Below are positions 48,039 through 64,000 of a stretch of DNA of 64,000 nucleotides, one piece after another. A program made the position numbers and the translations under genes. Source of the stretch: Cytophagales bacterium (GTDB taxonomy: Bacteria > Bacteroidota > Bacteroidia > Cytophagales > JAPOQI01); assembly GCA_026710765.1 (NCBI GenBank), contig JAPOQI010000147.1:11182-75181 (forward strand), in the 5' to 3' direction. Under the pieces are notes generated by a model that saw nothing but the letters and a program-made list of their open reading frames with translations, made no database searches and was not told the origin of the DNA. Numbering within the stretch: position 1 is the stretch's first letter; every line of letters begins with the position of its first letter.

Positions 48039-49129
48039 TATCCCCTGAAATTGCCCTCAGAATTGATTTCGAGAGCAGGAAAGGGAAGCTTGACAAAAAA
48101 CATAGCCTGAAAAAGGCCACGAAGAAAGCTATTCTCTACAGGAATCTGAGCCCAATCCACATCTAAGGAAAGCAAATATCGTCGGGTACGAGGTGCATCA
48201 GGAAGCCTTAGTCCATTGAAATATTCATGATTTTCATACTCCCCATACACGTTATCTATGGAATAACCCACGGAAATATCAATCCAAGGCGCTAGGAAAT
48301 CAGAGGATATAATCTTATTTGCTTGCAAACTAGCCCAAAAGGTCTTGCCATTGTAGTCTGAGATAATTCTGTCCATCGGACTCGTGCCAAAGAGACCCCC
48401 AGATACCGTAGCCTCGTGGGAGGGCCATAAGCTAAATTTTAATTTCAAAGGTCTTTCATCCAAATACCAAGTTTGTCCCAAAAATAGGGCAGATCCTAAT
48501 CCATTGGCAATGAGGTCTGGCCAGGAAAAGCCCCATTTTTCTACAAGTCCGTCCGTGATTTCTATGGCAGAAACTAGAGCAAAGGCTGAGAGACCCGAAT
48601 AAAGTAAAGAACTCTTTTTGCTTGCCCCAGCAAATCTGAGCCCATGATAACCTACGTGGGTATAAGACCAGGTATACAACATATGACCCAATTTATCCAT
48701 TTGAAGATATCCACCGAAATCATTTTCAAATGTATAAAATGTAAATTCCTGTCCCTTATACCAAGCATAGCCGAAAGTAGCCCACATCCCACCATATAAG
48801 CCACCTGCCAAACTCAACAAGCCAATCAAACGGGTACGATTCAAACTATCAGCAGCCACAACAAATGGGGATGGGGCAGAAAACATAGTCTCAGTCCCCA
48901 CGGACAAGGGATAGGTGTAATCCATTCCCAAAGCAGAAGCATGCATTCCTATACCCTGATTTAAAGATCCAAAGGAAGAGGCAGATAGATTAAGATAAGG
49001 GGTCCAGCATGAAGTTCCGATCAGTAAAATCAGAAAGAATTCGCGCGTCCGCACCCGCATCTGGGGTCCTATGATTAGATAAGTCTTTCGTGTTGATCTT
49101 ATTTTCTTTACGGTATTGAGCCTATACAT
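48023..49129 (-). CDS. DUF2279-like outer-membrane/periplasmic protein
   Basis: The pattern WY....F.F.ND...YLQMDKLGH resembles DUF2279 (from memory). It overlaps lpxB by 8 bp and cca by 16 bp. Confidence 0.5.
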   Translation of the reverse strand: MYRLNTVKKIRSTRKTYLIIGPQMRVRTREFFLILLIGTSCWTPYLNLSASSFGSLNQGIGMHASALGMDYTYPLSVGTETMFSAPSPFVVAADSLNRTRLIGLLSLAGGLYGGMWATFGYAWYKGQEFTFYTFENDFGGYLQMDKLGHMLYTWSYTHVGYHGLRFAGASKKSSLLYSGLSAFALVSAIEITDGLVEKWGFSWPDLIANGLGSALFLGQTWYLDERPLKLKFSLWPSHEATVSGGLFGTSPMDRIISDYNGKTFWASLQANKIISSDFLAPWIDISVGYSIDNVYGEYENHEYFNGLRLPDAPRTRRYLLSLDVDWAQIPVENSFLRGLFQAMFFVKLPFPALEINSEGNFRGYWLYF

Positions 49130-50261
49130 TTTTTGGGGAATTTAGAAAGTCTAATACTTGATGGGCTACTTCTTTTCCGGCTTCTTTATTTCCTAGTAGG
49201 GATCGGATGCTTTTGAAATCTGTTAAGATATTTTTCCGATAGCTTGAATTTTCAATCAATTTATTCAATTCCTTTTCCACCTTGAAGGTATTCACTTTAC
49301 TTGCAATATATTCTTTAATGGTTTCTTTTCCCAATATTAGATTGGGTAGGGAAACCACGGACTTATGCACCAAAAGGGGAAACAATGCTTTAGTGAGCCA
49401 GTGAAATTGATGACATATCATGTGGGGAACATCCAATAGGGCAGCTTCTAAAGAAGCGGTTCCCAGACCTACTATGGCAGCTTGTGATATCTTGAGAATA
49501 TCATAAAATCTCTTATATACCACCCGAACATTTTCCATGTCTTGTACAAGAGCATAGGATTTTTCTAACCCTGCTATCGCAGGAATATAAAAGCGGATAT
49601 CCTTCCGCCTAGAAATCATCGGTAAAAGGGATTTCAGCACCTTGACATCATCTGATCTGCTGCCCGGAAGAAGGGCTACCCGAAGATTAGAATCTTGACA
49701 TTGGGTTTGGATCCAATCCTTATCCCATACATGCTGTTTTATGTGGTGAACCGAAGGATTGCCTACATAATGAACGCAAGGATGGTGTTCCCGAAAATAT
49801 TCGTATTCAAAGGGAAAAATACAGAGAATGCATTGTATGTACCTATTTAGACTCTTGAGACGATAGGATCGTGAGAGCCAGGTCTTAGGTGGAATATAAT
49901 ACAGATTGGGAATACCCAAACTGTGTGTGAACTTTGCCAAAGGAAGATTAAATCCCGGAAAATCAACATATAGCATGAGATCAGGACGATAGGATAAGAT
50001 GTCTTTCTCGCAGCTCTTACGTTTTTTATTTTGGACACCTAGCTTTCGTAGGGTTTCTGTGATCCCTTTCGCGGAGAGTTCATGGTGTACGCTGAAAAGA
50101 TCCACCCCCAGCTCTTGCATGGCGTGTCCTCCGATCCCCCGAAACTGAAGATGAGAAGATGAAGAACGTCTGAGTGCCTCTATTAGCTGGGCAGCATGCA
50201 TATCACCTGATCGCTCGCCTACGACAATATAAATCTTTTGCATGTCTTTGATTCCTACCAT
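49122..50261 (-). CDS. lpxB: Lipid-A-disaccharide synthase
   Basis: IYIVVGERSGDMHAAQLIEAL N-terminus, 379 aa, GT19 pattern. Confidence 0.9.
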   Translation of the reverse strand: MVGIKDMQKIYIVVGERSGDMHAAQLIEALRRSSSSHLQFRGIGGHAMQELGVDLFSVHHELSAKGITETLRKLGVQNKKRKSCEKDILSYRPDLMLYVDFPGFNLPLAKFTHSLGIPNLYYIPPKTWLSRSYRLKSLNRYIQCILCIFPFEYEYFREHHPCVHYVGNPSVHHIKQHVWDKDWIQTQCQDSNLRVALLPGSRSDDVKVLKSLLPMISRRKDIRFYIPAIAGLEKSYALVQDMENVRVVYKRFYDILKISQAAIVGLGTASLEAALLDVPHMICHQFHWLTKALFPLLVHKSVVSLPNLILGKETIKEYIASKVNTFKVEKELNKLIENSSYRKNILTDFKSIRSLLGNKEAGKEVAHQVLDFLNSPKNV

Positions 50262-50316
50262 ATCGTCCTTGATGTGGAGATGAAGACTTTAATTTACAAG
50301 CTTTTTTCTTAATTTT

Positions 50317-51816
50317 GTGGGCATGGCAGAATCTAATAACTATCCGAAATCTCAAAATGACCCGATTCTTTCTATGGAAGAGGGTATTGCGTATGATGAT
50401 GTCTTGCTTGTACCTGCTTATGCTGATATTCTTCCAGATCAGGTCCGAATAGAAACCCAGCTTACGCGGAATATCTCCATCATGATTCCGGTTTTGTCCT
50501 CTGCCATGGACACCGTTACGGAATCGAGTATGGCTATTGCTATGGCACTTTCAGGAGGCATTGGTTGTGTGCATAAAAACATGTCTATTTCCCGACAAGT
50601 CGAAGAAATCCGAAAGGTCAAAAGATTTCAGTCGGGTATGATACTAGATCCCATTTATTTGGAGGATGAAACCACCCTTCGGGAAGCTGTCGACATCATA
50701 AAAAGACATCGTATTGGGGGAATCCCTATTGTGAAAAAAGATAAAACCTTGGTGGGTATCGTGACCAACAGAGATCTACGATTTTTGAAATCCGACAACA
50801 GACCCATTAGCTCCGTCATGACCCCAAACCCCTTAATTACGGGAAGGGTAGGCATAGGATTGGAGGAAGCCGCCCATATTCTTCAACAGCACAAAATAGA
50901 AAAGTTACCCATTGTGGATGAAAAAGGAGTATTGAAGGGATTAATTACCTACAAGGATATTTTGAAAAAATCGGATCATCCCCATGCTACCCGAGATTCC
51001 TATGGTCGTCTCCAGGTAGGGGCTGCCTTGGGATTAACAGAAGATGTATTCCTTCGGGTCAAAGCGCTCAAAGAAGCTGAAGTAGATTTTTTCGTCATAG
51101 ATACTGCACACGCCCATTCTAAGGGGGTAATCTCTTTGGCAGAGGAAATTAAAAAAACCCTAGATATAGATCTAGTGGTGGGAAATATAGCCACAGCAGA
51201 GGCTGCCAAAAGTCTTATTAAGATAGGGGTAGATGCGGTGAAGGTGGGAATTGGCCCCGGCAGTATCTGTACTACACGGGTGATTGCGGGTGTGGGGGTC
51301 CCCCAGTTCACGGCAGTAGCAAATGTATCCAGTGTCGCCCGAAAGAACAAAATCCCTGTGATCGCAGACGGAGGTATTCGCTACTCGGGAGACATTGTTA
51401 AAGCCCTAGCCATAGGTGCCGACTCGGTCATGATGGGATCCCTATTGGCAGGCACCGATGAAACACCAGGAGAGGTTATCATTCTGCAAGGAAAAAAATA
51501 TAAAACCTATCGGGGAATGGGGTCTGTGGAATCCATGCAACAGGGATCATCAGATAGATATTTTCAAGCACCCTATACGGATTCTAAAAAACTAGTCCCC
51601 GAAGGTGTAGTGGGACAGGTCCCATACCGAGGACCCGTAGCCGAAGTATTGCATCAACTCGTAGGGGGCATTCGCTCGGGCATGGGATATTGCGGCGCGA
51701 AGGATCTGAGCGAACTCAGAAAAACACAATTCATACGAGTCACCCCCGCAGGCGTCAGAGAAAGCCACCCACACGACGTGATCATCACCAGAGAAGCACC
51801 TAATTACTCAGGATAA
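50317..51816 (+). CDS. guaB: IMP dehydrogenase
   Basis: YDDVLLVP, tandem CBS domains, catalytic loop [11 protein letters not shown], and GGIRYSGD. The true start may be the ATG at 50323 or the ATG at 50374. Confidence 0.95.
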
Positions 51817-51986
51817 ATAGACCAAGAGAAAAGAAACCTGGGCTACTGAAACATGGATCTATTCTTTTTGAAGATAGCCCTCATAGCTGCTACTTTAAAT
51901 TCATCCATGCTCTGTTGTTTATAAATCTCTACCCGAGCATCCAAGATAAGAATATTTTTATGAGGGGATAGTTTGAAAGATTTTTG

Positions 51987-51994
51987 TATCTTTG
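51987..51994 (+). promoter_or_regulatory. Candidate Bacteroidota -7 promoter box (TAnnTTTG) upstream of the nicotinamidase-like gene
   Basis: tatctttg matches the TAnnTTTG consensus exactly and lies 55 nt upstream of the ATG at 52049. I saw no well-spaced -33 element. Confidence 0.3.
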
Positions 51995-52048
51995 TATTCG
52001 CCTTCGGGCTTGGCTAAGTGATTTATGAAATTCTAAACATTAAGAGAT

Positions 52049-52597
52049 ATGAAAAACGCGCTGATTATTATAGATATGCTAAACGATTTTGTGGATGGTG
52101 TCCTGGCTAACAAGGATGCTTATGAGATTATCCCACGTATTAAATCCTTGTTAGAACATGCTCGGAAATCTGAGGATTGGGTTGTGGTTTATTCCAACGA
52201 CGCACACAAGGATGGGGATCGGGAAATCAAACTTTGGGGTGCACACGCTGTGGTGGGGACTGCGGGTGCAGAGGTTGTATCAGATCTGAGTCCCCAGAAA
52301 TCTGGCAGGGAATTGATTTCTCCCAAGTCATTTTATGGTGCCTTTGAGGAAACGGGTTTGGCTGAAAAATTAAAAGCAAAGGGGATAAAAAATGTATATC
52401 TCACAGGGCAACATACCAACTGTTGTGTCCGCCACACAGCCTATGGTGCCTTTCGTCACGATTTTGAAATCTTTGTACCTAAGGATGCAGTTGTTTCTTT
52501 TGGTGGCGAGTCAAATGATGATGCGTTGAATTATCTCAAAACCATCTATGGCGCCATCATTACAGACGTGCAAGAAATACTTGCTGGGAAATCCTAA
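52049..52597 (+). CDS. pncA: Isochorismatase-family cysteine hydrolase, nicotinamidase-like
   Basis: ALIIIDMLNDF, the K..... and TGQHTNCCV catalytic Asp-Lys-Cys pattern. Confidence 0.75.
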   Translation: MKNALIIIDMLNDFVDGVLANKDAYEIIPRIKSLLEHARKSEDWVVVYSNDAHKDGDREIKLWGAHAVVGTAGAEVVSDLSPQKSGRELISPKSFYGAFEETGLAEKLKAKGIKNVYLTGQHTNCCVRHTAYGAFRHDFEIFVPKDAVVSFGGESNDDALNYLKTIYGAIITDVQEILAGKS

Positions 52598-52616
52598 GCC
52601 CCCACTTGGATTCCCC

Positions 52617-53753
52617 TTAGCTTTCCGAGATCTTAGATAGGATTTCCATGAAGATGTCTATCTCTTCTCGGGTGTTGTTCTGATCAAAAGAGAGACGAAG
52701 ATAAGCGTGGGTGGATGGGAAGTCCAGTACATCCAAAACATATGAGCGGTGGGCGGCTCCAGATCCGCATGCACTGCCTCCCGACACAGATATCCCCTCA
52801 ATATCCAATCGCATAGCTAGGGTTTCTTGCTCTTGTCCTGGAATTCCTATATGTAGGATACATGGATGTGTCTTTTCGGGAATGAAGGAAATATCCTCTC
52901 TCCAGGCTTGAAGACGCTGAATAGCATATTGCTTTGTATCATGTAAATCGCTTTGCCGAGAAGGGGTATTCCAGTGTTGATGATGAAGAGCCAGGGCCTT
53001 GGCCATCCCGACAATAGCGGCCAAATTTTCGGTTCCTGAACGTAGATTTCGTTCTTGTCCTCCTCCGTGGACTTGTGGGCTTAGCTTATTACCTTGTTGA
53101 AGATACAGGAGCCCAATACCCTTCGGACCATGGAATTTATGTGCCGAAGCTACAAAGCTGTGTAAACCTGTCCATGAAGAATTGAGTTCGGGATGCCCAA
53201 GGGCTTGTACCCGATCTGAATGCCACCAGACTGAATATTTCTGGGAAAGAAATTGGATAGAATCCATGTCCGTCAGGGTCCCCAATTCATTATGCACATG
53301 CATGAGAGAAAGTAGTGTGGGCTTTTTATGAAGTTTTTTTAATAAGCTTTCTAAATGATTCATATCGGGTTGACCCCATGGGGAGAGTCTGAGGTAATGG
53401 AGACGAACACCTTGATGCTGGGCAAGCTCTGAAAGAACCTCCCTAACAGAAGGATGCTCTATCTCAGAGCTAATCACATGATGAATATTATGTTCCTGAA
53501 TGAGTCCCTTGAGGGCTAAATTATTAGCTTCTGTACCCCCCGAGACAAAATATAACTCGTTCGCAGAAAGCCCCAGAAGCTCTGCCAAATTATAACGAGC
53601 CTCTTCTAATGCGTTTTTAAGATAGCGTCCTGGCTGATGCGTACTATTCGGATTTCCCTGATGCTGACTCAGGTACGGCAACATAGCTTGCAATACCCCT
53701 TTATCTAGAGGTGTAGAAGCAGCATGATCAAAATATATACGTTTCTGAGACAT
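52617..53753 (-). CDS. Cysteine desulfurase (class V aminotransferase, NifS/IscS-like)
   Basis: IYFDHAASTP, SGGTEANN, a SAHKFHGPKG PLP-lysine motif and the SGSAC active-site loop. I start the gene at MSQKRIYFDHAA (53753), not at the track start of 53825. Confidence 0.85.
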   Translation of the reverse strand: MSQKRIYFDHAASTPLDKGVLQAMLPYLSQHQGNPNSTHQPGRYLKNALEEARYNLAELLGLSANELYFVSGGTEANNLALKGLIQEHNIHHVISSEIEHPSVREVLSELAQHQGVRLHYLRLSPWGQPDMNHLESLLKKLHKKPTLLSLMHVHNELGTLTDMDSIQFLSQKYSVWWHSDRVQALGHPELNSSWTGLHSFVASAHKFHGPKGIGLLYLQQGNKLSPQVHGGGQERNLRSGTENLAAIVGMAKALALHHQHWNTPSRQSDLHDTKQYAIQRLQAWREDISFIPEKTHPCILHIGIPGQEQETLAMRLDIEGISVSGGSACGSGAAHRSYVLDVLDFPSTHAYLRLSFDQNNTREEIDIFMEILSKISES

Positions 53754-53861
53754 CAAAAATATGGACAGTATGAAGAACGAATATGCAAAGGAAAAGAAAA
53801 CAAATAAAAAGTTCTTCATATTCATGGAAAGTATAGCTGAGAGATAATCTGGGAATCTGGG

Positions 53862-54866
53862 TTGAAAGTTTTATCTTGGGTAATTATGGGACGAGTCATA
53901 CAATTTCGGGAGGCACTTAAAGAAGCCTTGCAAGAGGAGATGCAAAGGGATGAGAAGGTCTTTCTTATGGGAGAAGAGGTTGCTGAGTACAATGGTGCTT
54001 ACAAGGTGAGTCAGGGGTTGTTGGACGAGTTTGGCCCTGAACGTGTGGTGGATACCCCCATTTCGGAATTGGGTTTTGCGGGTTTAGGGGTAGGGGCTGC
54101 TATGAATGGTCTACGCCCTATTATAGAATTCATGACCTTTAATTTTTCTCTTGTAGCCATTGATCAGGTGATCAATAGTGCTGCCAAAATGTTATTTATG
54201 TCGGGAGGACAATGTCCTGTACCCATCGTGTTTCGGGGACCTACCGGAAATGCAGGGCAATTATCTGCACAGCATTCTCAAAATTTTGAAAATTGGTATG
54301 CCAACACGCCAGGATTAAAGGTTGTCGTTCCCTCCACACCCTATACCGCTAAGGGATTACTTAAATCAGCTATCCGAGATGATAATCCCGTAATATTTAT
54401 GGAATCAGAACTTATGTATGGGGATAAAGAAGAAGTTCCTGAGGAAGAGTATCTCTTAGCGATTGGAAAGGCAGAAGTACTTCAAGAGGGAAAGGACATA
54501 AGTCTCCTCTCCTTTGGAAAAATAATGAAATTGGCAGTCGCCGCAGCAGAAATCTTAGGTAAAGAGGGCAAATCGGTAGAACTGATAGATTTGCGAACCG
54601 TCCGTCCCATAGATTATGAAACCATTTGTGCTTCAGTGCAGAAAACCAATAGATTGGTGATTGTAGAGGAGGCTTGGCCCCTGGCTTCCATCTCTTCTGA
54701 GATTGCCTATCATGTACAACGTTATGCTTTTGATTATCTAGATGCGCCTGTTCAACGGGTCAGCAATTTGGACATTCCACTGGGTTATGCACCTACTTTG
54801 GTAGAGGCTAGTTTGCCCAGCCTTAAGAGGATATTAGATTCCCTTCGCCAGGTGCTTTACGAGTAG
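53862..54866 (+). CDS. pdhB: 2-oxoacid (pyruvate) dehydrogenase E1 component, beta subunit
   Basis: FREALKEALQEEMQRDEKVFLMGEEVAEYNGAYKVSQGL...DTPISE...GLRPI. The likely start is MGRVIQ at 53886. No E1-alpha gene is adjacent. Confidence 0.88.
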   Translation: MKVLSWVIMGRVIQFREALKEALQEEMQRDEKVFLMGEEVAEYNGAYKVSQGLLDEFGPERVVDTPISELGFAGLGVGAAMNGLRPIIEFMTFNFSLVAIDQVINSAAKMLFMSGGQCPVPIVFRGPTGNAGQLSAQHSQNFENWYANTPGLKVVVPSTPYTAKGLLKSAIRDDNPVIFMESELMYGDKEEVPEEEYLLAIGKAEVLQEGKDISLLSFGKIMKLAVAAAEILGKEGKSVELIDLRTVRPIDYETICASVQKTNRLVIVEEAWPLASISSEIAYHVQRYAFDYLDAPVQRVSNLDIPLGYAPTLVEASLPSLKRILDSLRQVLYE

Positions 54867-54911
54867 TTTTGAAATCTCTGAAGCTCTTGGATTCATCGTT
54901 CATATCCTTTC

Positions 54912-56111
54912 GTGTATAGTTTAGGGTCTTATTTGCATCGGGGTCTTACCTTCTTAAATAATAGGTATTTCCCTTCCCGCAAACGGCTGTCCACCCTGAT
55001 GATATATGCGACAGATCTATGTGACTCAGCGTGTAAGCATTGTCTGATCTGGGCCAAAAGACCCGTTAAACATCTTCCTTTCGAGACGATCCGGCAGCTA
55101 CTCCAAAAAAATAAATGCGTTTCCTCCCAAACCCTTGTAGGATTAGAAGGAGGGGAATTCCTGCTCCATCCTGAAGCCATGGAAATCCTAGCCTGGATGC
55201 GAAAACATCATCCCCGATTTGATTTATTATCCAATTGTTTGAAGCCCGATAAGCTGATTCGTGCTGTGGAAAAATATCCCCCTCAGAGATTATATGTTTC
55301 CCTGGATGGAGACAAGGATACCTATCTTTATATGCGAGGAAAAGAGGGTTATGATTCGGTTCTTTCGGTAATTCAGACCCTTCATAAACGGGTTCCGATT
55401 TCAGTCATGTTTTGTCTATCGCCTTATAATGATTTTGAAGACATGAAACATGTGGGGGAGGTATCTCAGAAATATGGGGTAGATATGCGGGTAGGCGTTT
55501 ATAACGACATTGCTTTTTTTGATACCCTAGAAAAGGCTCACGAGACCGATATAGCAGAGAAAAAGGATAAGACAAAGCTTGTTTACAAAGAGGTTAAGCC
55601 GATTAAGGATAAAATACAGATGGACAAAGGGAAATCAGAACAAAAAGATCTCTCCACTCCCAAGCATCAGGTCCGTGATTACCAACCTTTTCACGAACAG
55701 ATACCCTCTGTCGTCTCGGATTTTCCCGAGAATCGGGAATTTCTTATTCTCTACGAAGCCTGGCGCCGAAAGAAATTAAAATTAAAATGTCATAGCATTT
55801 TAGATAGTTTAATTGTGCTTCCGGATGGAACAGTCCCGATTTGTCAAAACCTGGATACCAAATTAGGATCCATATACCAAGACTCCCTGGATCATATTTT
55901 TAATAGTCCCTCTTCTCAGAAAATTCAGGACAAGCATGTTCATCATTGTAATCAGTGTTGGATCAATTTTCACAGGAAATATGACATAGTCCTGTACCGT
56001 ACCTTTGAACGGTTTTTTGGCACACGTACAACAGCAAAATTATTGGGTTATTATCAATGGTCAGATGAACCCATCACGTATTCTTCGCTGATGAAGAAGT
56101 ACAGCCATTAG
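54912..56111 (+). CDS. Radical SAM enzyme with a Cys-containing C-terminal (SPASM/twitch-like) region
   Basis: CxxxCxxC cluster motif within YATDLCDSACKHCLIW, GGEFLLHP glycine-rich SAM motif, C-terminal PICQNLDTKLGSI...HHCNQCW, and a Lys/Asp-rich insert at aa ~225-265. GTG start. Confidence 0.75.
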   Translation: MYSLGSYLHRGLTFLNNRYFPSRKRLSTLMIYATDLCDSACKHCLIWAKRPVKHLPFETIRQLLQKNKCVSSQTLVGLEGGEFLLHPEAMEILAWMRKHHPRFDLLSNCLKPDKLIRAVEKYPPQRLYVSLDGDKDTYLYMRGKEGYDSVLSVIQTLHKRVPISVMFCLSPYNDFEDMKHVGEVSQKYGVDMRVGVYNDIAFFDTLEKAHETDIAEKKDKTKLVYKEVKPIKDKIQMDKGKSEQKDLSTPKHQVRDYQPFHEQIPSVVSDFPENREFLILYEAWRRKKLKLKCHSILDSLIVLPDGTVPICQNLDTKLGSIYQDSLDHIFNSPSSQKIQDKHVHHCNQCWINFHRKYDIVLYRTFERFFGTRTTAKLLGYYQWSDEPITYSSLMKKYSH

Positions 56112-56125
56112 AAACACCATTATTA

Positions 56126-56956
56126 GTGCTTCCTTTTCGGGTTTACATTGTTCATTTGTTTCGGGCATCCCATCGTCGGGTTCATATGGATGAGCAGCTT
56201 CGTTTGGCAGGGATCACGAATTATAGCTATGTGGAGGGAGTGGATGGTCGAAAGCTTGGGAAGGCAGATCTATCCTTGCATGCTACCTCGGATGCGAAAT
56301 TAAGTTTCTCTGAATTGGGTTGTTATTTGAGTCATGTACGGGCTTGGGAGCAGATGGATCGGGATGGGGTGGAAGTGGCTTTGATCTTGGAAGACGATGT
56401 CATTATTTCGGCAGACCTGGTTTCTGTATTATCCCGGATTAATAAATTTCCCCCAAATTGGGAGCTGATACACGTTGCGGATATTCCTGCTGATCCCAAT
56501 GCACCACATCAACTAAATCATTGGGGTATTGTCGATCTGGATTCTTCCTATGTGATAGGAACATCCATGTCCTACCGAATTACAGGCTTGGGTTATTTGG
56601 TTCATCTTCGGGGCGTAAAGAATATTCTTCCTTTTCTCAGAAAGCCCATTTTCAAACCCGTAGATCACATGCTTTTTGAGTACAGCTCTAACTATCATTT
56701 TTTTCATAGCATCAAACCTTCTTTGGTCTTCTTGAGGAGGGATATAAAATCTGAACTACGAAACAAAGATTCATTCAACAATCTGGGCGAACACCTAAAC
56801 TGGCAAACAAGAATAGCAGGTATACTTTCCAAGTGGACCTGGAATATTTTATCTTTTTTCCCAGTTCCAGCCAAGAGATATACAACTCGGAGAGAACAGA
56901 ACATGCTCATGTATTTTCTACATTTGCTACGAGACTATTTTTTCCGTAGGAGATGA
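56126..56956 (+). CDS. Glycosyltransferase family 25 paralog 1 (most divergent; GTG start)
   Basis: VYIVHL.R...RR.HMDEQL..AGI, VDGRKL, ELGCYLSH..AW, ALILEDDVI. The pattern is as in the LgtB/Lic2-type GT25 family. Confidence 0.8.
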   Translation: MLPFRVYIVHLFRASHRRVHMDEQLRLAGITNYSYVEGVDGRKLGKADLSLHATSDAKLSFSELGCYLSHVRAWEQMDRDGVEVALILEDDVIISADLVSVLSRINKFPPNWELIHVADIPADPNAPHQLNHWGIVDLDSSYVIGTSMSYRITGLGYLVHLRGVKNILPFLRKPIFKPVDHMLFEYSSNYHFFHSIKPSLVFLRRDIKSELRNKDSFNNLGEHLNWQTRIAGILSKWTWNILSFFPVPAKRYTTRREQNMLMYFLHLLRDYFFRRR

Positions 56957-56977
56957 GTGCAATAAGCCTTTAAAGAT

Positions 56978-57814
56978 ATGCTTCCTTTTCCTGTTTATAT
57001 TATTCATTTGTTTCGGGCTTCTCATCGTAGGGTTCATATGGATGAGCAGCTTCGTTTGGCAGGGATCACGAATTATAGCTATGTAGAAGCCGTGGATGGT
57101 CGAAAATTGGGTAAGGAAGATCTATCCTTGCATTGTTCTCCGGACACGAAATTAAGTTTCTCTGAATTGGGTTGCTATTTGAGTCATGTACGGGCTTGGG
57201 AGCAGATGGATCGGGATGGGGTAGAGATGGCTTTGATCTTGGAGGACGATGTCATTCTTAGCACAGACATAGTTCCCGTGCTATCTCAAACTTCCCGTTT
57301 TCCGCCAAACTGGGAACTGATACATATTGCGGAGAACGGCTATCGGTTGACCCCTCATCATGTATTGAATCACTGGAGAAGGAAAAAACTGACTTCGTCC
57401 TATCAGATAGGAATATCTATGTCCTCACGGGTTACGGGTATGGGTTATTTGGTCCATCAACGTGGGCTAAAGAGATCTTTGCCTCGCCTTAGAAAGGCCG
57501 TAGAAATTCCCGTTGACCTCGTTCTTTTTGACCATGATAGGGGAAGTTCTTTTTATCACAGCGTCAAACCTTCCTTGATCTTCTTGAGGAGGGATATAAA
57601 ATCTGATATACGGGATACTAAGACGGTAGAATGGGAAAAACGTCCTAATTCTCTGATGGAAAAAATTCATATTTTTGTGTTTGGGTCAATTTTGAATTTC
57701 CTCCGTTTTTTCCCTCCGCCCAGGAGAATACGTATGCCCTATCCTCGGGGGACAATAAGATTTAGATATTATCTCATTCGCCTGGTTTGGGATTACTTTT
57801 TCCGCAGGAGATGA
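56978..57814 (+). CDS. Glycosyltransferase family 25 paralog 2
   Basis: Same signature as paralog 1, with the tail RFRYYLIRLVWDYFFRRR. Confidence 0.8.
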   Translation: MLPFPVYIIHLFRASHRRVHMDEQLRLAGITNYSYVEAVDGRKLGKEDLSLHCSPDTKLSFSELGCYLSHVRAWEQMDRDGVEMALILEDDVILSTDIVPVLSQTSRFPPNWELIHIAENGYRLTPHHVLNHWRRKKLTSSYQIGISMSSRVTGMGYLVHQRGLKRSLPRLRKAVEIPVDLVLFDHDRGSSFYHSVKPSLIFLRRDIKSDIRDTKTVEWEKRPNSLMEKIHIFVFGSILNFLRFFPPPRRIRMPYPRGTIRFRYYLIRLVWDYFFRRR

Positions 57815-57834
57815 CTTAGATATCCTTTAAAGAT

Positions 57835-58674
57835 ATGCTTCCTTTTCCGGTTTATATTGTTCACCTGTCTCGGAACGTCCATCGTCGGGTTCATATGGAT
57901 GAGCAGCTTCGTTTGGCAGGGATCACGAATTATAGCCATGTAGAGGGAGTAGATGGTCAAAAACTGGGTAAGGCAGATCTATCCTTGCATTGTTCTCCGG
58001 GTGCGAAATTGAGTTTGGGTGAATTGGGCTGTTATTTGAGTCATAGGCAGATTTGGGAGCAGATGGATCGGGATGAGGTGGAGATGGCTTTGATCTTGGA
58101 AGACGATGTCATTCTTAGCACAGACATAGTTCCCGTGCTATCTCAAACTTCCCGTTTTCTGCCAAACTGGGAACTGATACATGTTGCGGATATCAGCTAC
58201 CAATTGAGTCATCCTCATATATTGAATCATTGGGGAAGAAGAAGACTGGCTTTGTCCTATCAGATAGGAATATCTATGTCCTCACGGATTACCGGTATGG
58301 GTTATTTGATTCATCAACGTGGGCTAAAGAGATCTTTGCCTCGCCTCAGAAAGCCTATAAAACTGCCCATTGACTCTACCCTCTTTGACTATAGCAGGGG
58401 GGTGAGTTTTTTTCATAGCATCAAACCTTCTTTGATATCCTTAAAAAAAGATATAGAATCTGACATACGGGATAATAGAACCGAGATAGAGTGGAAAAAA
58501 GGTCCTTCAAACCTGTCATCCATCGAGAGAATTTTTCCTTTTTTACATGAGAATATTTGGGTTTTTCTTTCTTTTTTTCCTCCGCCTCGGAGAATATATG
58601 ATCCGTGGGGAAAAATAAGATTTAGATATTATCTCATTCGCCTGGTTTGGGATTACTTTTTCCGCAGGAGATGA
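57835..58674 (+). CDS. Glycosyltransferase family 25 paralog 3
   Basis: Same signature as paralog 1. The 3' end and following spacer are identical to those of paralog 2. Confidence 0.8.
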   Translation: MLPFPVYIVHLSRNVHRRVHMDEQLRLAGITNYSHVEGVDGQKLGKADLSLHCSPGAKLSLGELGCYLSHRQIWEQMDRDEVEMALILEDDVILSTDIVPVLSQTSRFLPNWELIHVADISYQLSHPHILNHWGRRRLALSYQIGISMSSRITGMGYLIHQRGLKRSLPRLRKPIKLPIDSTLFDYSRGVSFFHSIKPSLISLKKDIESDIRDNRTEIEWKKGPSNLSSIERIFPFLHENIWVFLSFFPPPRRIYDPWGKIRFRYYLIRLVWDYFFRRR

Positions 58675-58695
58675 CTTAGATATCCTTTAAAAGGT

Positions 58696-59541
58696 ATGCT
58701 TCCTTTTCCGGTTTATATTGTTCATTTGTTTCGGGCTTCTCATCGTCGGGTTCATATGGATGAGCAGCTTCGTTTGGCAGGGATCACGAATTATAGCTAT
58801 GTAGAAGCCGTGGATGGTCAAAAACTGGGGAAAGCAGATCTATCCTTGCATTGTTCTCCGGATGCGAAATTGAGTTTGGGTGAGTTAGGCTGTTATTTGA
58901 GTCATAGGCAGATTTGGGAGCAGATGGATCGGGATGGGGTAGAGATGGCCTTGATCTTGGAAGACGATGTCATTCTTAGCGCAGACATAGTTCCCGTGCT
59001 ATCTCAGGCTTCCCGTTTTCCGCCAAACTGGGAACTGATACATGTTGCAGATATCAGCTACCAATTGAGTCATGCTCATGTATTGAATCATTGGGGAAGA
59101 AGAAGCCTGGCTCTGTCCTATCAGATAGGAATATCTATGTCCTCACGGGTTACGGGTATGGGTTATTTGGTCCATCAACGTGGGCTAAAGAGATCTTTGC
59201 CTCGCCTTGGAAAGGATGTAGACATTCCTGTTGACAATGTTCTTTTTGACTATGCAAAGGGGGGTTATTTTTTTCATAGTATGAAGCCTTCTTTGGTATT
59301 CTTAAAAAAAGATATAGAATCTGACATACGGGTTAATAGAACCGAGATAGAGTGGAAAAAAGGTCCTTCAAACCTGTCATTCCTCGAGAGAATTTTTGTT
59401 TTTTTACGTAATAATATTTGGGTTTTTCTTTCTTTTTTTCCCCCGCCTCGGAGAATATATGTTTACTATCCGTGGGGAAAAATGAGATTTAGATATTATA
59501 TCTTTCGCCTGGTCTGTGATTACTTTTTCCGCAGAAGATAA
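58696..59541 (+). CDS. Glycosyltransferase family 25 paralog 4
   Basis: Same signature as paralog 1. The 3' end overlaps the convergent GT-C-like gene by 22 bp. Confidence 0.8.
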   Translation: MLPFPVYIVHLFRASHRRVHMDEQLRLAGITNYSYVEAVDGQKLGKADLSLHCSPDAKLSLGELGCYLSHRQIWEQMDRDGVEMALILEDDVILSADIVPVLSQASRFPPNWELIHVADISYQLSHAHVLNHWGRRSLALSYQIGISMSSRVTGMGYLVHQRGLKRSLPRLGKDVDIPVDNVLFDYAKGGYFFHSMKPSLVFLKKDIESDIRVNRTEIEWKKGPSNLSFLERIFVFLRNNIWVFLSFFPPPRRIYVYYPWGKMRFRYYIFRLVCDYFFRRR

Positions 59542-60827
59542 TGAATCTGTTTATGTCTTCTTTGTTGAAATTCCCAGACCCAACATGCTGATAAGATCAG
59601 ATACTCAGCAAGGATCCAGAGATAGGGATGTTGGTAGCCTGTGGAATCATAACCTATATATGACCAGCAGATCAGATAAGACCAAAGCAATGGAAAAATT
59701 AGGCCCTGAAAGACTCCCAAACCTATCAAGGGAATCAGATACCAAGGATGTATCGTGCTGCTAAGGAGTAGGTAGAAGAGATACAGCCATGGGGCTATAC
59801 TGAGCATATCGGATCTTCTGCGTATATAAGATATTAGCAGAATCCCAAAGGCAGATAGCATGCCTAAAAAAGGACCTATATAACGAGTCAGATCCCCCTG
59901 ACCTATGTAAATCCCGATCCCCTTGATCAGAGCAAAAACACCCGAATTGAATTCAAATTGGCGAAAATATAGATCCAAACTTTTCCACATCCCGACAGAG
60001 AATCCCATAGGTACAAAGAGTACAAAGAGAAAAAAACATAGAAGGACACATAGGAGGATTTTCTTTCTGGACGATACATGAAAAAATAACTGAGGTAAAA
60101 AAACTAGGGGGTATAATTTGGTGGCGATGGCACATGCAAAGGATAAAAGGGGCTGATATAGACTTCTCTTCCGAGAAAATCCCCAAGCTGTCAGCAAAAG
60201 GAATGCCAGAACTAGGGCTTCAAAATGTACATTTCCTATGCCCTCCCAGATGACTAGTGGATTTAAAAAATAAGCTGCCTGTTGAATGGGCCTAAGCTGA
60301 TATTTTTGAAAGATGTGCAGGACAACCATTTCCGCACCCAAGATGATAAATCGCAGCAGAGACAAAGAAAAAAGATATTCATGGGCTGAGTATCCAAGGG
60401 CTGCCAATGCGAACCCTAGTTGATGAAAAAGAGGATAAGGACTGTGATAATGGGGAGAATTGAGATGATTATAAAGGTCTTCAGGATAGGCCTTCCCTTG
60501 AACTATTCTCTGTTGGACCCATTGTGTGGGGGTGTACTCAAAAGGAGAATGTCCTTCTAACCACAGCCATCCATCCCATAGAAAACGATAGAAATCATCC
60601 GACAGATGGGGAAGACAAAAGAAAAAGGGAAGTCTAAATAAGAGTCCCCATTGCCATATATTCCGAATGGATAAGGAAGGACTTTTGAGAAGTAAAAAAT
60701 AACCTAAAAAACTTCCCAAAAACAGTCCTTGCACAAGCCAAACCTCGTTTCTGTCTCCGAAGGAGCCCAGACATATGTGCAGTAAAAGGCAAACAAAAAC
60801 AATAGCCGCCAGACCCCGACTAGGCAA
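59520..60827 (-). CDS. Polytopic GT-C-like membrane glycosyltransferase (DUF2029/mannosyltransferase-like)
   Basis: 435 aa with ~11 TM helices. The first periplasmic loop carries the acidic motif SDDFYRFLWDGWLWLEGHSPF, which is typical of polyprenyl-phosphate-sugar-dependent GT-C enzymes. Confidence 0.6.
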   Translation of the reverse strand: MPSRGLAAIVFVCLLLHICLGSFGDRNEVWLVQGLFLGSFLGYFLLLKSPSLSIRNIWQWGLLFRLPFFFCLPHLSDDFYRFLWDGWLWLEGHSPFEYTPTQWVQQRIVQGKAYPEDLYNHLNSPHYHSPYPLFHQLGFALAALGYSAHEYLFSLSLLRFIILGAEMVVLHIFQKYQLRPIQQAAYFLNPLVIWEGIGNVHFEALVLAFLLLTAWGFSRKRSLYQPLLSFACAIATKLYPLVFLPQLFFHVSSRKKILLCVLLCFFLFVLFVPMGFSVGMWKSLDLYFRQFEFNSGVFALIKGIGIYIGQGDLTRYIGPFLGMLSAFGILLISYIRRRSDMLSIAPWLYLFYLLLSSTIHPWYLIPLIGLGVFQGLIFPLLWSYLICWSYIGYDSTGYQHPYLWILAEYLILSACWVWEFQQRRHKQIHYLLRKK

Positions 60828-62325
60828 TACCCTTATCTTTGAACTCCCCCAGAATACGCCATTTGAACTGAAATCTCAAACAGGAATAGCGAAGTATTAT
60901 GAAATTTCCCAGACATAGACTCAAATGAAAAAATATAGCAGAATAGTCCTCCCACATCACAGCCAAGGATATACCCAAGATCGCATAAGAAATAGAACAT
61001 GTCTCCATCCATGGGAATCTTGAAATCCTAAGATAGTCCCAGTCTTGATGGGTATATCTTAGTCCTCCTTTTTTGGGGGTTCTATGAAAATGATTATTCC
61101 CTTGTCTGCGAAAAAGACCCGAAAGCAATGCCATTGTGTTTTGCAAGGCTAAGGCTGTATGGATAGAAATAAAGAGAAAGGTTTGGACAAGGTAAAATTC
61201 TCGTCTCTCCTTGGACCTATCTAAGCCAGAGGCCGTGAAATAATAGGGGATGATGAATAAAGAACCTAAAAAGAAAAAAGTTCCAATATTGAACCACGGA
61301 CCTATATCCGATATCTGTTTGAGATAAAGCATAGGAACACTTAAAAGAAGTACAGATAGTATGAAGAAGGAAATAAAATTGCTCCCCATGTGGAATACCC
61401 TCAAGATGCGTTGGGTTAAGGGGATTTCTTCCTTAAAAATAGAACGGAGATGTTTAGCAATGTTTTGGGCGCCCCCTTTGGACCAACGATATTGTTGTTT
61501 TTTCAAATCCTCTGCCAAGACCGGCAATTCACCCGGACATACTACATGATTCAGGTAATGATATTTCCATCCTTTGAGTTGGGCCCTACAGCTGATATCC
61601 AAATCTTCAGCCACAGTATCTGTTTCCCATCCTCCTGTATCTTCTATACAAGTTTTTCGCCAAATACCTGCGGTTCCATTGAAACTCAACCAATAGGCCT
61701 TAGTATATCGGGCAAGTTGTTCGTACTTGAAAAAGGCATTCAGACCAAAAGCTTGAAGTTTGGTTAGTCCGTTTTCTTTTTCGTTTAGATAACCCCATCG
61801 GGTCTGTACGAAACCGACTCGTTCATTTTTGAAATAAGGGATGGTATTGAGAAGAAAATCATTCGGTGGAACAAAATCTGCATCAAAGATTGCTATATAA
61901 TCTCCCCTGGCATGGGGCAAAGCATGTTGTAGCGCGCCTCCTTTGTACCCATCCCGATCTGATCTTCTAATAACCCGTATTCTTTTCTGCTTTTCATGAT
62001 CTTGTTGGGCTATCCATTTGTCTATGTACTGAGAGGTTTCATCTGTGGAGTCATCCAAGACATGTATTTCTGTCTTATCGGAGGGATATATTATTCGTGT
62101 ACAGGCTTCTAAGAGACGTGTGATTACATATTTCTCATTGTAAACGGGAAGTTGTATGGTCACGGAGGGATATTCACCGCCTTCTTGAGTGGGTGACAAA
62201 GGTCTTAATCGCTGAGATTTAGACCGAAATGAAGCCGCAAAAAAGAAATGAAACCGAATGATATTGAAAGTCAATATACCGATCAGGCAAAAGATGTAAA
62301 CGGCAAGTGTAAAATAAGAAATCAT
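60820..62325 (-). CDS. Membrane-embedded GT2 glycosyltransferase, CslA/MgdA-like (D,D,D,QxxRW type)
   Basis: VTIQLPVYNEKYV, VLDDSTDET, FDADF, TVAEDLD and QQYRWSKG, with N- and C-terminal TM helices. Confidence 0.85.
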   Translation of the reverse strand: MISYFTLAVYIFCLIGILTFNIIRFHFFFAASFRSKSQRLRPLSPTQEGGEYPSVTIQLPVYNEKYVITRLLEACTRIIYPSDKTEIHVLDDSTDETSQYIDKWIAQQDHEKQKRIRVIRRSDRDGYKGGALQHALPHARGDYIAIFDADFVPPNDFLLNTIPYFKNERVGFVQTRWGYLNEKENGLTKLQAFGLNAFFKYEQLARYTKAYWLSFNGTAGIWRKTCIEDTGGWETDTVAEDLDISCRAQLKGWKYHYLNHVVCPGELPVLAEDLKKQQYRWSKGGAQNIAKHLRSIFKEEIPLTQRILRVFHMGSNFISFFILSVLLLSVPMLYLKQISDIGPWFNIGTFFFLGSLFIIPYYFTASGLDRSKERREFYLVQTFLFISIHTALALQNTMALLSGLFRRQGNNHFHRTPKKGGLRYTHQDWDYLRISRFPWMETCSISYAILGISLAVMWEDYSAIFFHLSLCLGNFIILRYSCLRFQFKWRILGEFKDKGIA

Positions 62326-63011
62326 CGGTATTTGAATATCGTATATAAGATCTTATAGCCCGCCATGAGGACACCCCCAACCGTACCCGATATCTTTGAT
62401 TTACCTATTCGCTTCCGATAAGAAACAGGAACCTCTACCCAAGGGATCTTTTTTTTAACCGCCTTAATTTGCATTTCAATCGTCCATCCAAAATCCCGAT
62501 CCTGCATGTTCAGCGATTTTAGAGAGGGATAACGGATTGCCCTAAAGGGACCTAAATCGGTAAATTTAGCCTGATAAAGATGTTCTAAGAGATAGCATGC
62601 CAGGCGATTTCCAACATATTGTGGGAAGGTCATGGCATCCTTATCCTGCTTCCCCCTGAACCGAGAACCTATAACCATATCAGCCTCACCTTTGCGTATA
62701 GGATCCAAGATATATAGAATTTCTTCTGGATAATCTGAATAATCCCCATCCAAAAAAACAACCACATCAGGTTTGGGCACTTGCTGACTCAGGTAGGATA
62801 TTCCTTTCAGACATGCCTGACCATAGCCTCGTTGGGGTTCATGCAGGGCTGTAACACCATGGGCTTCTGCCAAGGAAAATGTTTTGTCCTCAGATCCATT
62901 ATCTATTACGATAACCTCGTCTATTTCCTCCATAGGAAGATCTTTAAGAACATGGGGAAGGGCAATTTCTTCATTCACAGCCGGAATTATTACCTTGACA
63001 ATCAAATTCAC
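62322..63011 (-). CDS. Soluble GT2 glycosyltransferase, polyprenyl-phosphate sugar synthase-like
   Basis: 229 aa with VIIPAVNEE, VIVIDNGSEDKT, FLDGDYSD and MVIGSR. It has 4-bp overlaps with both neighbouring genes. Confidence 0.8.
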   Translation of the reverse strand: MNLIVKVIIPAVNEEIALPHVLKDLPMEEIDEVIVIDNGSEDKTFSLAEAHGVTALHEPQRGYGQACLKGISYLSQQVPKPDVVVFLDGDYSDYPEEILYILDPIRKGEADMVIGSRFRGKQDKDAMTFPQYVGNRLACYLLEHLYQAKFTDLGPFRAIRYPSLKSLNMQDRDFGWTIEMQIKAVKKKIPWVEVPVSYRKRIGKSKISGTVGGVLMAGYKILYTIFKYR

Positions 63012-64000
63012 CTAGATCTGGGTAGAACCCGTTTGGGAGATCTTTTCCACTGAGCCCGAAGCACCTTTTGAATAGACCCTTTATCATAGCCACAAAGTTT
63101 ATGCAGTTCTTCGGGTTTTCCTTGCTTAATGATCTGATCTGGAATACCTAATCGGCGAACCGGAAGAAAATATTCATGTTGAGCTAAAAACTCCAAAATC
63201 GCAGACCCAAATCCGCCCATTAAACAACCATCTTCCAAGCTTATAATCTGTTCAAAAGATCCACAAATCTTGTGGAGCAGGTCTTCATCCAAGGGTTTTA
63301 CAAAACGCATATCATATAGGGCAGGAAATATGTTTTCAGCAGCCAACTCGTCCAAGACTTCCAAGGCTATATTTCCGATATGCCCTATGGATAGGATGGC
63401 TATTTTTTCTCCTTCCCGAAGACATCTCCCTTTGCCAATGGGAATTTTTTTCATGGGGGTTTTCCATTTAGGTGTAGTTCCTTTTCCTCGGGGATAGCGA
63501 ATGGAGAAAGGTCTTTGGGATCGTGATAATTGCATGGTGTAAAGAAAATTTCGCAGTTCTTCTTCGTTCAGCGGAGAAGCTATGATCAGATGGGGAAGAC
63601 AACGCATAAAAGCCAAATCATAGGCACCATGATGGGTTGCCCCATCTTCTCCCACCAATCCTCCCCGATCCAAGACAAAATTAACCGGCAAATTTTGGAC
63701 ACATACATCATGGATTAACTGATCATACCCACGTTGCATAAAGGTGCTGTAAATATGACAAAAAGGAATAAGTCCCTGCGTCACCATGCCCGCAGAGAAG
63801 GTCACCGCATGTTGCTCAGCTATACCCACATCAAAAACGCGATCAGGTAATTCTGCCATCATAATGTTCATAGAAGACCCCGAAGGCATAGCCGGCGTGA
63901 TCCCCATAATCTTATCATTTTTCCGAGCCAACTCAAGAAGACTATGTCCGAAGACCTCTTGATATTTTAAAGGACCTGGTTCAGAAGATGTTTGGGAAGA
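63008..64000 (-). CDS. dxs: 1-deoxy-D-xylulose-5-phosphate synthase, C-terminal ~330 aa. The gene continues beyond the right edge of the window.
   Basis: FDVGIAEQHAVTFSAGM, DRGGLVGEDGATHHG and a transketolase C-terminal domain. The frame stays open to position 64000 (…SSQTSSEPGPLKYQEVFGHSLLELARKND…). Confidence 0.93.
   Translation of the reverse strand, partial: SSQTSSEPGPLKYQEVFGHSLLELARKNDKIMGITPAMPSGSSMNIMMAELPDRVFDVGIAEQHAVTFSAGMVTQGLIPFCHIYSTFMQRGYDQLIHDVCVQNLPVNFVLDRGGLVGEDGATHHGAYDLAFMRCLPHLIIASPLNEEELRNFLYTMQLSRSQRPFSIRYPRGKGTTPKWKTPMKKIPIGKGRCLREGEKIAILSIGHIGNIALEVLDELAAENIFPALYDMRFVKPLDEDLLHKICGSFEQIISLEDGCLMGGFGSAILEFLAQHEYFLPVRRLGIPDQIIKQGKPEELHKLCGYDKGSIQKVLRAQWKRSPKRVLPRSR

Follow-up and report, generated by a model that had tools for sequence, protein, structure and literature searches.

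We analysed a 64,000-nt stretch of DNA from a Cytophagales bacterium, here called the window. A block of eight genes at 54912-63011, together with the isoprenoid gene dxs that follows it to position 64000, was examined. The block holds a radical S-adenosylmethionine (rSAM) gene, four tandem genes of glycosyltransferase family GT25, and three genes encoding a small soluble GT2, a membrane GT2, and a GT-C membrane glycosyltransferase, which are referred to as the trio. An earlier, sequence-only reading had described these genes as one glycosylation locus. In this study, we found that the stretch is likely to consist of three evolutionarily independent modules that adjoin only in this genome, and not of one glycosylation system. 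The genes had been observed accurately; however, a sugar-handling role of the rSAM gene could not be demonstrated, and the interpretation that unified the block was unsupported.

The co-location of these genes in related genomes was investigated using two anchors. With the rSAM gene as the anchor, 80 genome loci with flanks of up to 10 kb were searched by tblastn using all proteins of the window. GT25, GT-C, membrane GT2, and dxs were all absent within 10 kb in 80 of the 80 loci, and three weak matches to the small GT2 were detected, each in a distinct genome. With the GT-C gene as the anchor, 84 loci were obtained (4 exact look-ups and 80 metagenome loci), of which 54 were informative, with at least 2.7 kb of upstream sequence. 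GT25 genes were found in 0/84 and the rSAM gene in 0/84 of these loci. The proposal that the two convergent units of the block form one locus was therefore not borne out, because the other unit was present in 0/80 rSAM-anchored and 0/84 GT-C-anchored loci and the units were never co-located across the 164 related loci. The closest relatives in this comparison shared at most about 62% (rSAM) and about 41% (GT-C) amino acid identity with the proteins of the window. Only in this genome does the rSAM gene adjoin the GT25 genes. The dxs gene was found near the trio in one of the 84 loci, L085, which is the closest relative (41% GT-C identity). Since dxs was present in only this locus, its adjacency is probably a lineage-restricted synteny and not a regulatory coupling to isoprenoid supply.

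The trio, in turn, is kept as a unit in other genomes. It lies on the minus strand, with the small GT2 (229 aa) at 62322..63011, the membrane GT2 (501 aa) at 60820..62325, and the GT-C gene (435 aa) at 59520..60827. It is located directly behind the 3' part of dxs (63008..64000, minus strand), which encodes the C-terminal ~330 aa, is cut by the window end, and matches TIGR00204 with 351 bits over model positions 323-612. The stop and start codons behind dxs had been described as overlapping, and the junctions read from the sequence agree: GTGA between dxs and the small GT2, ATGA between the two GT2 genes, and an 8-bp overlap between the membrane GT2 and the GT-C gene. Overlapping junctions, which imply translational coupling, recur in L085, L087, and L088. 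Orthologues of both GT2 genes were present in 43 of the 54 informative GT-C loci, and in 40 of them they were directly adjacent, collinear, and in the same order. At the trio loci, the orthologues were 47-59% (small GT2) and 35-44% (membrane GT2) identical to the proteins of the window. In 64 of the 84 loci, the gene immediately upstream of GT-C was the membrane GT2 orthologue. These results demonstrate that the order small GT2, membrane GT2, GT-C is a widely conserved Bacteroidota operon.

The third gene of the trio had been called GT-C-like, and its GT-C fold was confirmed and could be specified further. A Pfam scan of the 435-aa protein returned nothing even at E <= 10, with a library copy that probably predates or lacks PF26314. 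On the identical database protein (P0241) and on all 120 homologues listed, PF26314 (MptA_B_family) was found as a precomputed match. Many homologues also carry PF09594 (GT87/DUF2029), and their source names include 'alpha-1,6-mannosyltransferase'. A profile and an AlphaFold2 model were built from an alignment of 26 homologues. The profile matched GPI (glycosylphosphatidylinositol) mannosyltransferase 1 (E = 5e-7) and PimE (9dm5, E = 0.0085). The model had a pLDDT (predicted local distance difference test) of 91.9 and a pTM (predicted TM-score) of 0.91, and its top 13 Foldseek matches in the PDB were all GT-C-fold proteins. The structural matches included ALG6, GPI-MT-I, a PIG-U-type GPI transamidase subunit, PimE (TM-scores of 0.56/0.62), ALG9, ALG3, ArnT, EmbB, and PMT. 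The enzymes among these matches use polyprenyl- or dolichyl-phosphate sugar donors. After the second helix, the motif S76-D77-D78-x-x-R81-F82-x-W84-D85-G86 (SDDxYRFxWDG) was found family-wide; among the 26 homologues, D78 never varies and conservation of D77 is at least 90%. The SDD motif stands where PimE and other GT-C enzymes hold their catalytic Asp. PimE is a polyprenyl-phosphate-mannose-dependent mannosyltransferase whose catalytic base, D58, is located in the first extracytoplasmic loop (PMC12041525). Together, the sequence and the model predict a polyprenyl-phosphate sugar as the donor of the GT-C enzyme.

The small GT2 matched the Pfam GT2 family (PF00535) with 71 bits. Its best PDB match was the dolichyl-phosphate mannose (DPM) synthase of P. 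furiosus (Pyrococcus; 5mlz, 5.3e-7, residues 3-210). A DGD motif was found at residue 88, and no transmembrane or hydrophobic segment was present. The best NCBIfam scores were all below cutoff (AglJ, 130 vs 325; dolichyl-P-hexose transferase, 57 vs 375; PpgS, 50.6 vs 370), and the score against the ArnC model was 24.6 vs a cutoff of 529. These results suggest that the small GT2 is a polyprenyl-P-sugar-synthase-like enzyme that falls outside every characterised equivalog. The pairing of such a synthase-like GT2 with a GT-C enzyme, as previously proposed, is in agreement with DPM synthase as the best solved relative of the former and with the PimE match of the latter.

The membrane GT2 was matched by the Pfam models GT2, Glyco_tranf_2_3, and GT21, the Glyco_transf_21 match having an E-value of 6e-9. 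Its best PDB match was BcsA (1.6e-27, residues 12-336). The motifs DDS91, DAD148, FNGTAG215, ED, and QQYRW277 were identified, and hydrophobic segments were located at residues 1-31 (one N-terminal) and 310-359 (at least two C-terminal). No PilZ domain was found in the Pfam and NCBIfam scans, and the scores were below the equivalog cutoffs of CelA (132.5 vs 699) and PgaC (108 vs 422). Judged from these features, the membrane GT2 is a cellulose-synthase-like enzyme of the BcsA/CslA-like type and is probably processive.

We compared the trio with known systems. As in Ppm1 with MptA/MptB/PimE of mycobacteria and corynebacteria, a polyprenyl-P-mannose-synthase-like GT2 is combined with an MptA_B/GT87-like GT-C enzyme that has an Asp in loop 1. 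However, the trio GT-C protein shares only ~16% identity with PimE, the host is a Gram-negative member of Bacteroidota without the phosphatidylinositol mannoside (PIM) pathway, and the gene that stands between the small GT2 and GT-C genes, with translational coupling to them, encodes a BcsA/CslA-like membrane GT2. In the GtrA/GtrB/GtrX, ArnC/ArnT, and CsbB/YfhO systems, a GT2 charges polyprenyl phosphate, the sugar is flipped, and a GT-C enzyme transfers it outside the cytoplasm (PMC11127046). The trio has this logic in common with the three-component Gtr/Arn/CsbB-YfhO systems. Unlike them, it has no GtrA- or SMR-type (small multidrug resistance) flippase and has a cellulose-synthase-like GT2 as the third component, and the small GT2 is without the C-terminal transmembrane helices of GtrB and ArnC. 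The membrane GT2 shares with the bacterial cellulose synthase BcsA and the plant CslA/CslC-type synthases the D, DxD, ED, Q(Q/R)xRW, and FNGTAG motifs and the N- and C-terminal transmembrane segments, but a PilZ domain and the partners BcsB/C/Z are missing.

The second module, the GT25 array, consists of four plus-strand genes at 56126..56956 (copy 1, 276 aa, the most divergent), 56978..57814 (copy 2, 278 aa), 57835..58674 (copy 3, 279 aa), and 58696..59541 (copy 4, 281 aa). The PF01755 scores were 69.5, 72.3, 75.8, and 73.9 bits, respectively, against a gathering cutoff of 24, and the matches covered profile positions 3-198 of 199. A profile of the four paralogs matched the solved GT25 proteins mimivirus R655 (1.4e-10), procollagen galactosyltransferase 1 (COLGALT1; 2e-8), and bacterial 8xc8 (9e-7). 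GT25 is a family of beta-glycosyltransferases of the lipopolysaccharide (LPS)/lipooligosaccharide (LOS) core, of the Lic2A/LgtB/LgtE/LpsA type. When 5.8 billion clustered proteins were searched, close matches were limited to the four paralogs themselves, all on one 95-kb contig of a Cytophagales metagenome-assembled genome. The next-best matches were 26-37% identical, and the named ones were enzymes of Shewanella and other proteobacteria. In a HMMER search of 1.84 billion representatives, E <= 1e-30 was reached only by the paralog cluster and one protein of 31% identity. Two of the nearest relatives could be placed in their genomes; one belongs to a classical waa-type core cluster that also includes three GT9 genes, one GT8 gene, and a 3-deoxy-D-manno-oct-2-ulosonic acid (Kdo) kinase gene, and the other adjoins GT4 and PMT_2 genes.

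The four copies are all intact and end in a common basic/aromatic C-terminal tail, ...DYFFRRR, which is probably a membrane-association segment. The amino acid identity to copy 4 was 62% for copy 1, 75% for copy 2, and 85% for copy 3. Nucleotide identity was graded in the same order, with 90% between copies 3 and 4, 82% between copy 2 and copies 3 and 4, and 66-69% between copy 1 and the rest. Over codons 1-100, synonymous divergence (dS) was 0.23-0.37 for every pair, whereas beyond codon 100, dS between copy 1 and copies 2-4 was above 1 or saturated. This pattern is a signature of gene conversion, which keeps the donor-binding N-terminal third homogeneous and leaves the C-terminal two-thirds to diverge. 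Copies 3 and 4 were also nearly identical over their last 80 codons (dS 0.086, dN/dS ~1). Tandem Repeats Finder detected no repeat at 54-64 kb, where the ~860-bp unit of the array exceeds the 500-bp period limit of the program, and paralogy was established by alignment. These results indicate that the array is lineage-specific and arose by serial duplication.

The array resembles GT25 enzymes of the Lic2A/LgtB/LgtE/LpsA type in its PF01755 score, in its length of ~280 aa, and in the basic/aromatic C-terminal tail. It differs from them in consisting of four tandem paralogs without an orthologue, in having neither simple-sequence repeats nor GT9/Kdo neighbours, and in its Bacteroidota host. Phase variation of the GT25 genes was considered and rejected, as neither a homopolymer of at least 8 bases nor di-, tetra-, or pentanucleotide repeats were found. 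Recent horizontal transfer of the GT25 block was not supported, since GC and GC3 were without anomaly and the codon-usage distance was only modestly raised. Most likely, the GT25 enzymes elongate an LOS/LPS-type core that is assembled in the cytoplasm, and acceptor specificity probably differs among the four copies. The nearest non-self proteins (P0361, P0362, P0365, and P0366) include polypeptides of 502-932 aa with 2-4 separate GT25-matching stretches; elsewhere, GT25 multiplication has therefore also taken the form of gene fusions.

The third module is the rSAM gene (54912..56111, plus strand, 399 aa), which encodes a radical SAM domain (Pfam Radical_SAM, 54 bits) and a C-terminal SPASM/Twitch-type domain (SPASM, 38.4 bits vs a cutoff of 21.5). 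The CX3CX2C motif (C37/C41/C44) is invariant. As only four C-terminal Cys residues are invariant (C293, C311, C346, and C349), the protein is suggested to hold one auxiliary cluster and not the two of a full SPASM domain. It reached none of the NCBIfam cutoffs, the best score being that of TIGR04340 (69 bits vs 400). Orthologues with 55-62% identity were found across Chitinophagales, Cytophagales, Flavobacteriales, and others. These results indicate that the rSAM gene belongs to a pan-Bacteroidota family, of which it is the copy in this genome.

The sequence-only reading had counted all eight genes as sugar-handling. Seven are glycosyltransferases by family or fold; however, the rSAM protein reached no curated family and its structural matches were mixed. 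The rSAM model, with a moderate pLDDT of 71.6, matched SkfB, BlsE (a sugar-nucleoside decarboxylase), CteB, SuiB, PqqE, and MoaA, so that maturases of ribosomally synthesized and post-translationally modified peptides (RiPPs) were mixed with the sugar-nucleoside enzyme BlsE. The sequence profile also matched SkfB. The only neighbour that recurred across orders was a Gfo/Idh/MocA oxidoreductase gene, which was found in 40 of the 80 loci and often abuts or overlaps the rSAM gene, sometimes at the rSAM start; no such partner was found in the 64-kb window. Because of this partnership and the BlsE match, there is a weak hint that the rSAM substrate may be a small molecule, possibly a sugar or cyclitol. 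The rSAM protein was also considered as a RiPP maturase acting on the ...DYFFRRR tail of the GT25 proteins, and this was rejected because the rSAM family is kept in 80 genomes without a GT25 neighbour.

In Chitinophagaceae, the rSAM/oxidoreductase pair follows porV-porU of the type IX secretion system (T9SS), along with a carbamoyltransferase or Hsp70-like gene and a gene for a 500-aa polytopic protein that has an invariant DD after the first transmembrane helix. This neighbourhood could mark an uncharacterised envelope-related pathway. A relationship of this 500-aa protein to the GT-C protein of the window found no support, with an hhalign probability of 1.2% and no PDB match.

The open reading frame map gave eight open reading frames at exactly the coordinates described earlier, and Pfam agreed with the family calls made for the rSAM gene, the four GT25 genes, and the two GT2 genes. 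The two units had been described as convergent with overlapping 3' ends. An overlap of 22 bp on the two strands was read from the sequence at 59520..59541, with the GT25 copy 4 stop codon TAA at 59539-59541 and the GT-C stop codon at 59520-59522. Scans of the eight genes and their neighbours pdhB and dxs revealed no Wzx/Wzy, ABC exporter, initiating phosphoglycosyltransferase, or nucleotide-sugar genes, in accordance with the earlier view that the block is unlike a standard O-antigen or capsule locus. The upstream region (49122-54866) holds housekeeping genes, namely lpxB, guaB (IMP dehydrogenase), an isochorismatase-like hydrolase gene, a cysteine desulfurase-like aminotransferase gene, and pdhB (pyruvate dehydrogenase E1 beta subunit), the last of which ends 45 bp upstream of the rSAM start.

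Scans for sigma-70 promoters (20 vs 22.8 expected from shuffled sequence) and intrinsic terminators (10 vs 8.9) showed no enrichment. Matches to the Bacteroidota -7 consensus TAnnTTTG were found on the plus strand as TAGTTTTG at 54864-54871, 41 nt upstream of the rSAM start, and as TACCTTTG at 56000-56007, ~120 nt upstream of GT25 copy 1 and within the rSAM 3' end. As the window-wide number of matches was only slightly enriched (67 vs 51 expected), these motifs are regarded as leads and not as evidence.

From the gene order, coupling, folds, and motifs found for the trio, together with the analogy to known systems, we infer a possible sugar, acceptor, and product. At the cytoplasmic face, the small GT2 would charge polyprenyl phosphate with a hexose, which is probably mannose. 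The membrane GT2 would make and translocate a beta-linked glycan, or would build a glycolipid acceptor. The GT-C enzyme would then take the flipped polyprenyl-P-sugar and decorate the product of the membrane GT2 in the periplasm. The GT25 copies, separately, would probably add variety to a surface glycan that is built in the cytoplasm, such as the outer core of LOS.

Several observations weigh against this reading of independent modules and their proposed roles. The gaps from the rSAM gene through the GT25 genes are short (14-21 bp), which suggests co-transcription here, and a lineage-specific functional link between the modules is conceivable given that the relatives compared were no nearer than ~62%/~41%. 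No GT9 or Kdo genes flank the array, and the only LPS gene near it is lpxB, ~5 kb upstream. Within the trio, there is no flippase gene; the small GT2, which has no membrane anchor, scored below all curated polyprenyl-P-sugar synthase models; and the membrane GT2 might not be processive.

We then weighed other explanations for these genes. The membrane GT2 might instead be a glycolipid synthase, of the MGlcDG-synthase (monoglucosyldiacylglycerol) type or the GT21 diacylglycerol/ceramide type, and the GT-C enzyme would extend its head group by analogy with the assembly of PIM and lipomannan (LM). Such a role is consistent with the Glyco_transf_21 match (6e-9) and with a short protein of 501 aa that has neither PilZ nor a BcsB-like partner, and the closest characterised relatives of the GT-C enzyme, PimE and MptA/B, act on glycolipids. 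However, the membrane GT2 is most like BcsA (1.6e-27), CelA, and PgaC, and its QQYRW/ED/FNGTAG motif set is complete and of the processive type. We regard a glycolipid synthase as unlikely, although it retains a realistic chance.

The trio may also be connected with arsenosugar- or chalcogen-sugar-type genes, which recur around it in other genomes. When the neighbours of the 84 GT-C loci were clustered, several were found repeatedly on the trio strand. Upstream of the trio were a NapH/MauN-like Fe-S membrane protein (23 of 48 trio loci), a pyridine-nucleotide (flavin) disulfide oxidoreductase (19/48), a recurrent DUF547 protein, TIGR04283 (220 bits vs a cutoff of 182), an arsenosugar-type ArsM (NF038099, 564 vs 400), and a purine-nucleoside phosphorylase (PNP; 313 vs 218). 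Downstream were a rhodanese with the NCBI curator name 'rhoda_near_glyco' (194 vs 145) and TIGR04282 (212 vs 134). At least one of TIGR04282, TIGR04283, and ArsM was located within 10 kb in 19 of the 48 trio-positive loci. The genes often form a larger same-strand block of DUF547, TIGR04283, flavin disulfide reductase, NapH-like protein, trio, rhodanese, and TIGR04282 (L089, L091, L093, L103, L105, L112, L117, L131, L137, L150, L156, L158, and L160). The blocks of L117 and L137 add purine-nucleoside phosphorylase and the arsenosugar-type ArsM, and a Crp/Fnr regulator, a SCO-like protein, and cytochrome c recur farther downstream.

The NCBIfam arsenosugar set (ArsS TIGR04167, TIGR04282, TIGR04283, and ArsM NF038099) thus flanks the orthologous trio in many Bacteroidota, but no gene of the window is a member of it. 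The earlier suggestion that window genes be compared with TIGR04283, TIGR04282, and TIGR04167 yielded scores below the cutoffs or no homologue. The rSAM protein scored 18.5 vs 300 against TIGR04167 (ArsS), and the 229-aa and 501-aa GT2 proteins scored 37.8 and 23.7, respectively, vs 182 against TIGR04283. No genes of the arsenosugar set, including a TIGR04282 homologue, were found in the 64-kb window.

On this evidence, the trio could be a part of an arsenosugar/chalcogen-sugar pathway in which it attaches or exports, for example onto a lipid, the sugar from ArsM, ArsS, PNP, TIGR04282, and TIGR04283, with the pathway being a remnant or dispersed in this genome. Members of the set lie within 10 kb in those 19 of 48 loci, often on the same strand and abutting the trio, and rhodanese, PNP, the NapH-like protein, and the flavin disulfide reductase recur as well. 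Against it, these genes are all missing from over half of the trio loci, the window and its closest relative L085 among them; the GT2 and rSAM proteins of the window are below the cutoffs of TIGR04283 and TIGR04167; the flanks examined contained no ArsS-type rSAM; and the NCBIfam names are themselves guilt-by-association labels. A literature search on the arsenosugar GT families, on the DUF2064/rhodanese/DUF547 context, and on Bacteroidota DUF2029 GT-C proteins returned nothing specific, and no paper linking these genes was found. We consider membership of the trio in such a pathway improbable. The association may mean that the genes are functionally tied, or may be no more than synteny within marine Flavobacteriia and Cytophagia.

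Finally, the view that the convergent units form one pathway, in which the GT25 enzymes (with the rSAM enzyme) would build a cytoplasmic glycan and the trio would add periplasmic residues to the same acceptor, is in keeping with contiguous genes whose 3' ends share 22 bp and which are interrupted by no other pathway genes, with seven glycosyltransferases among eight genes, and with uniform GC and codon usage across the block, but it is very improbable given that the units were never together in the 164 related loci, that the trio is kept without GT25 or rSAM and rSAM without either, that the GT25 genes have no orthologues among the 5.8 billion proteins and 1.84 billion representatives, and that the convergent orientation precludes co-transcription of the units.

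With the block read as three independent modules, its parts are of interest separately. The orphan four-copy GT25 array is a clear case of glycosyltransferase diversification via duplication and partial gene conversion. The recurrent arsenosugar linkage of the trio is a testable lead; if it is true, the trio could provide the step, missing so far, in which an unusual As/S/Se-containing sugar is joined to a lipid or glycan. It is at present a doubtful proposal that the trio builds an undescribed envelope glycoconjugate, in the form of a beta-glycan or glycolipid made by the synthase and branched in the periplasm with sugar from a polyprenyl-P-sugar, and that in many marine Flavobacteriia/Cytophagia the trio is perhaps tied to the arsenosugar-type set (ArsM, PNP, TIGR04282, TIGR04283, rhodanese, NapH-like protein, and flavin reductase). 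No account of the trio turned up in the searchable literature. It pairs a cellulose-synthase-like enzyme with polyprenyl-P-sugar/GT-C logic, which is known from the lipomannan of mycobacteria and from the decoration of O-antigen or lipid A. This combination suggests that an envelope glycoconjugate not yet described is made in a phylum that is prominent both in the environment and in association with hosts.

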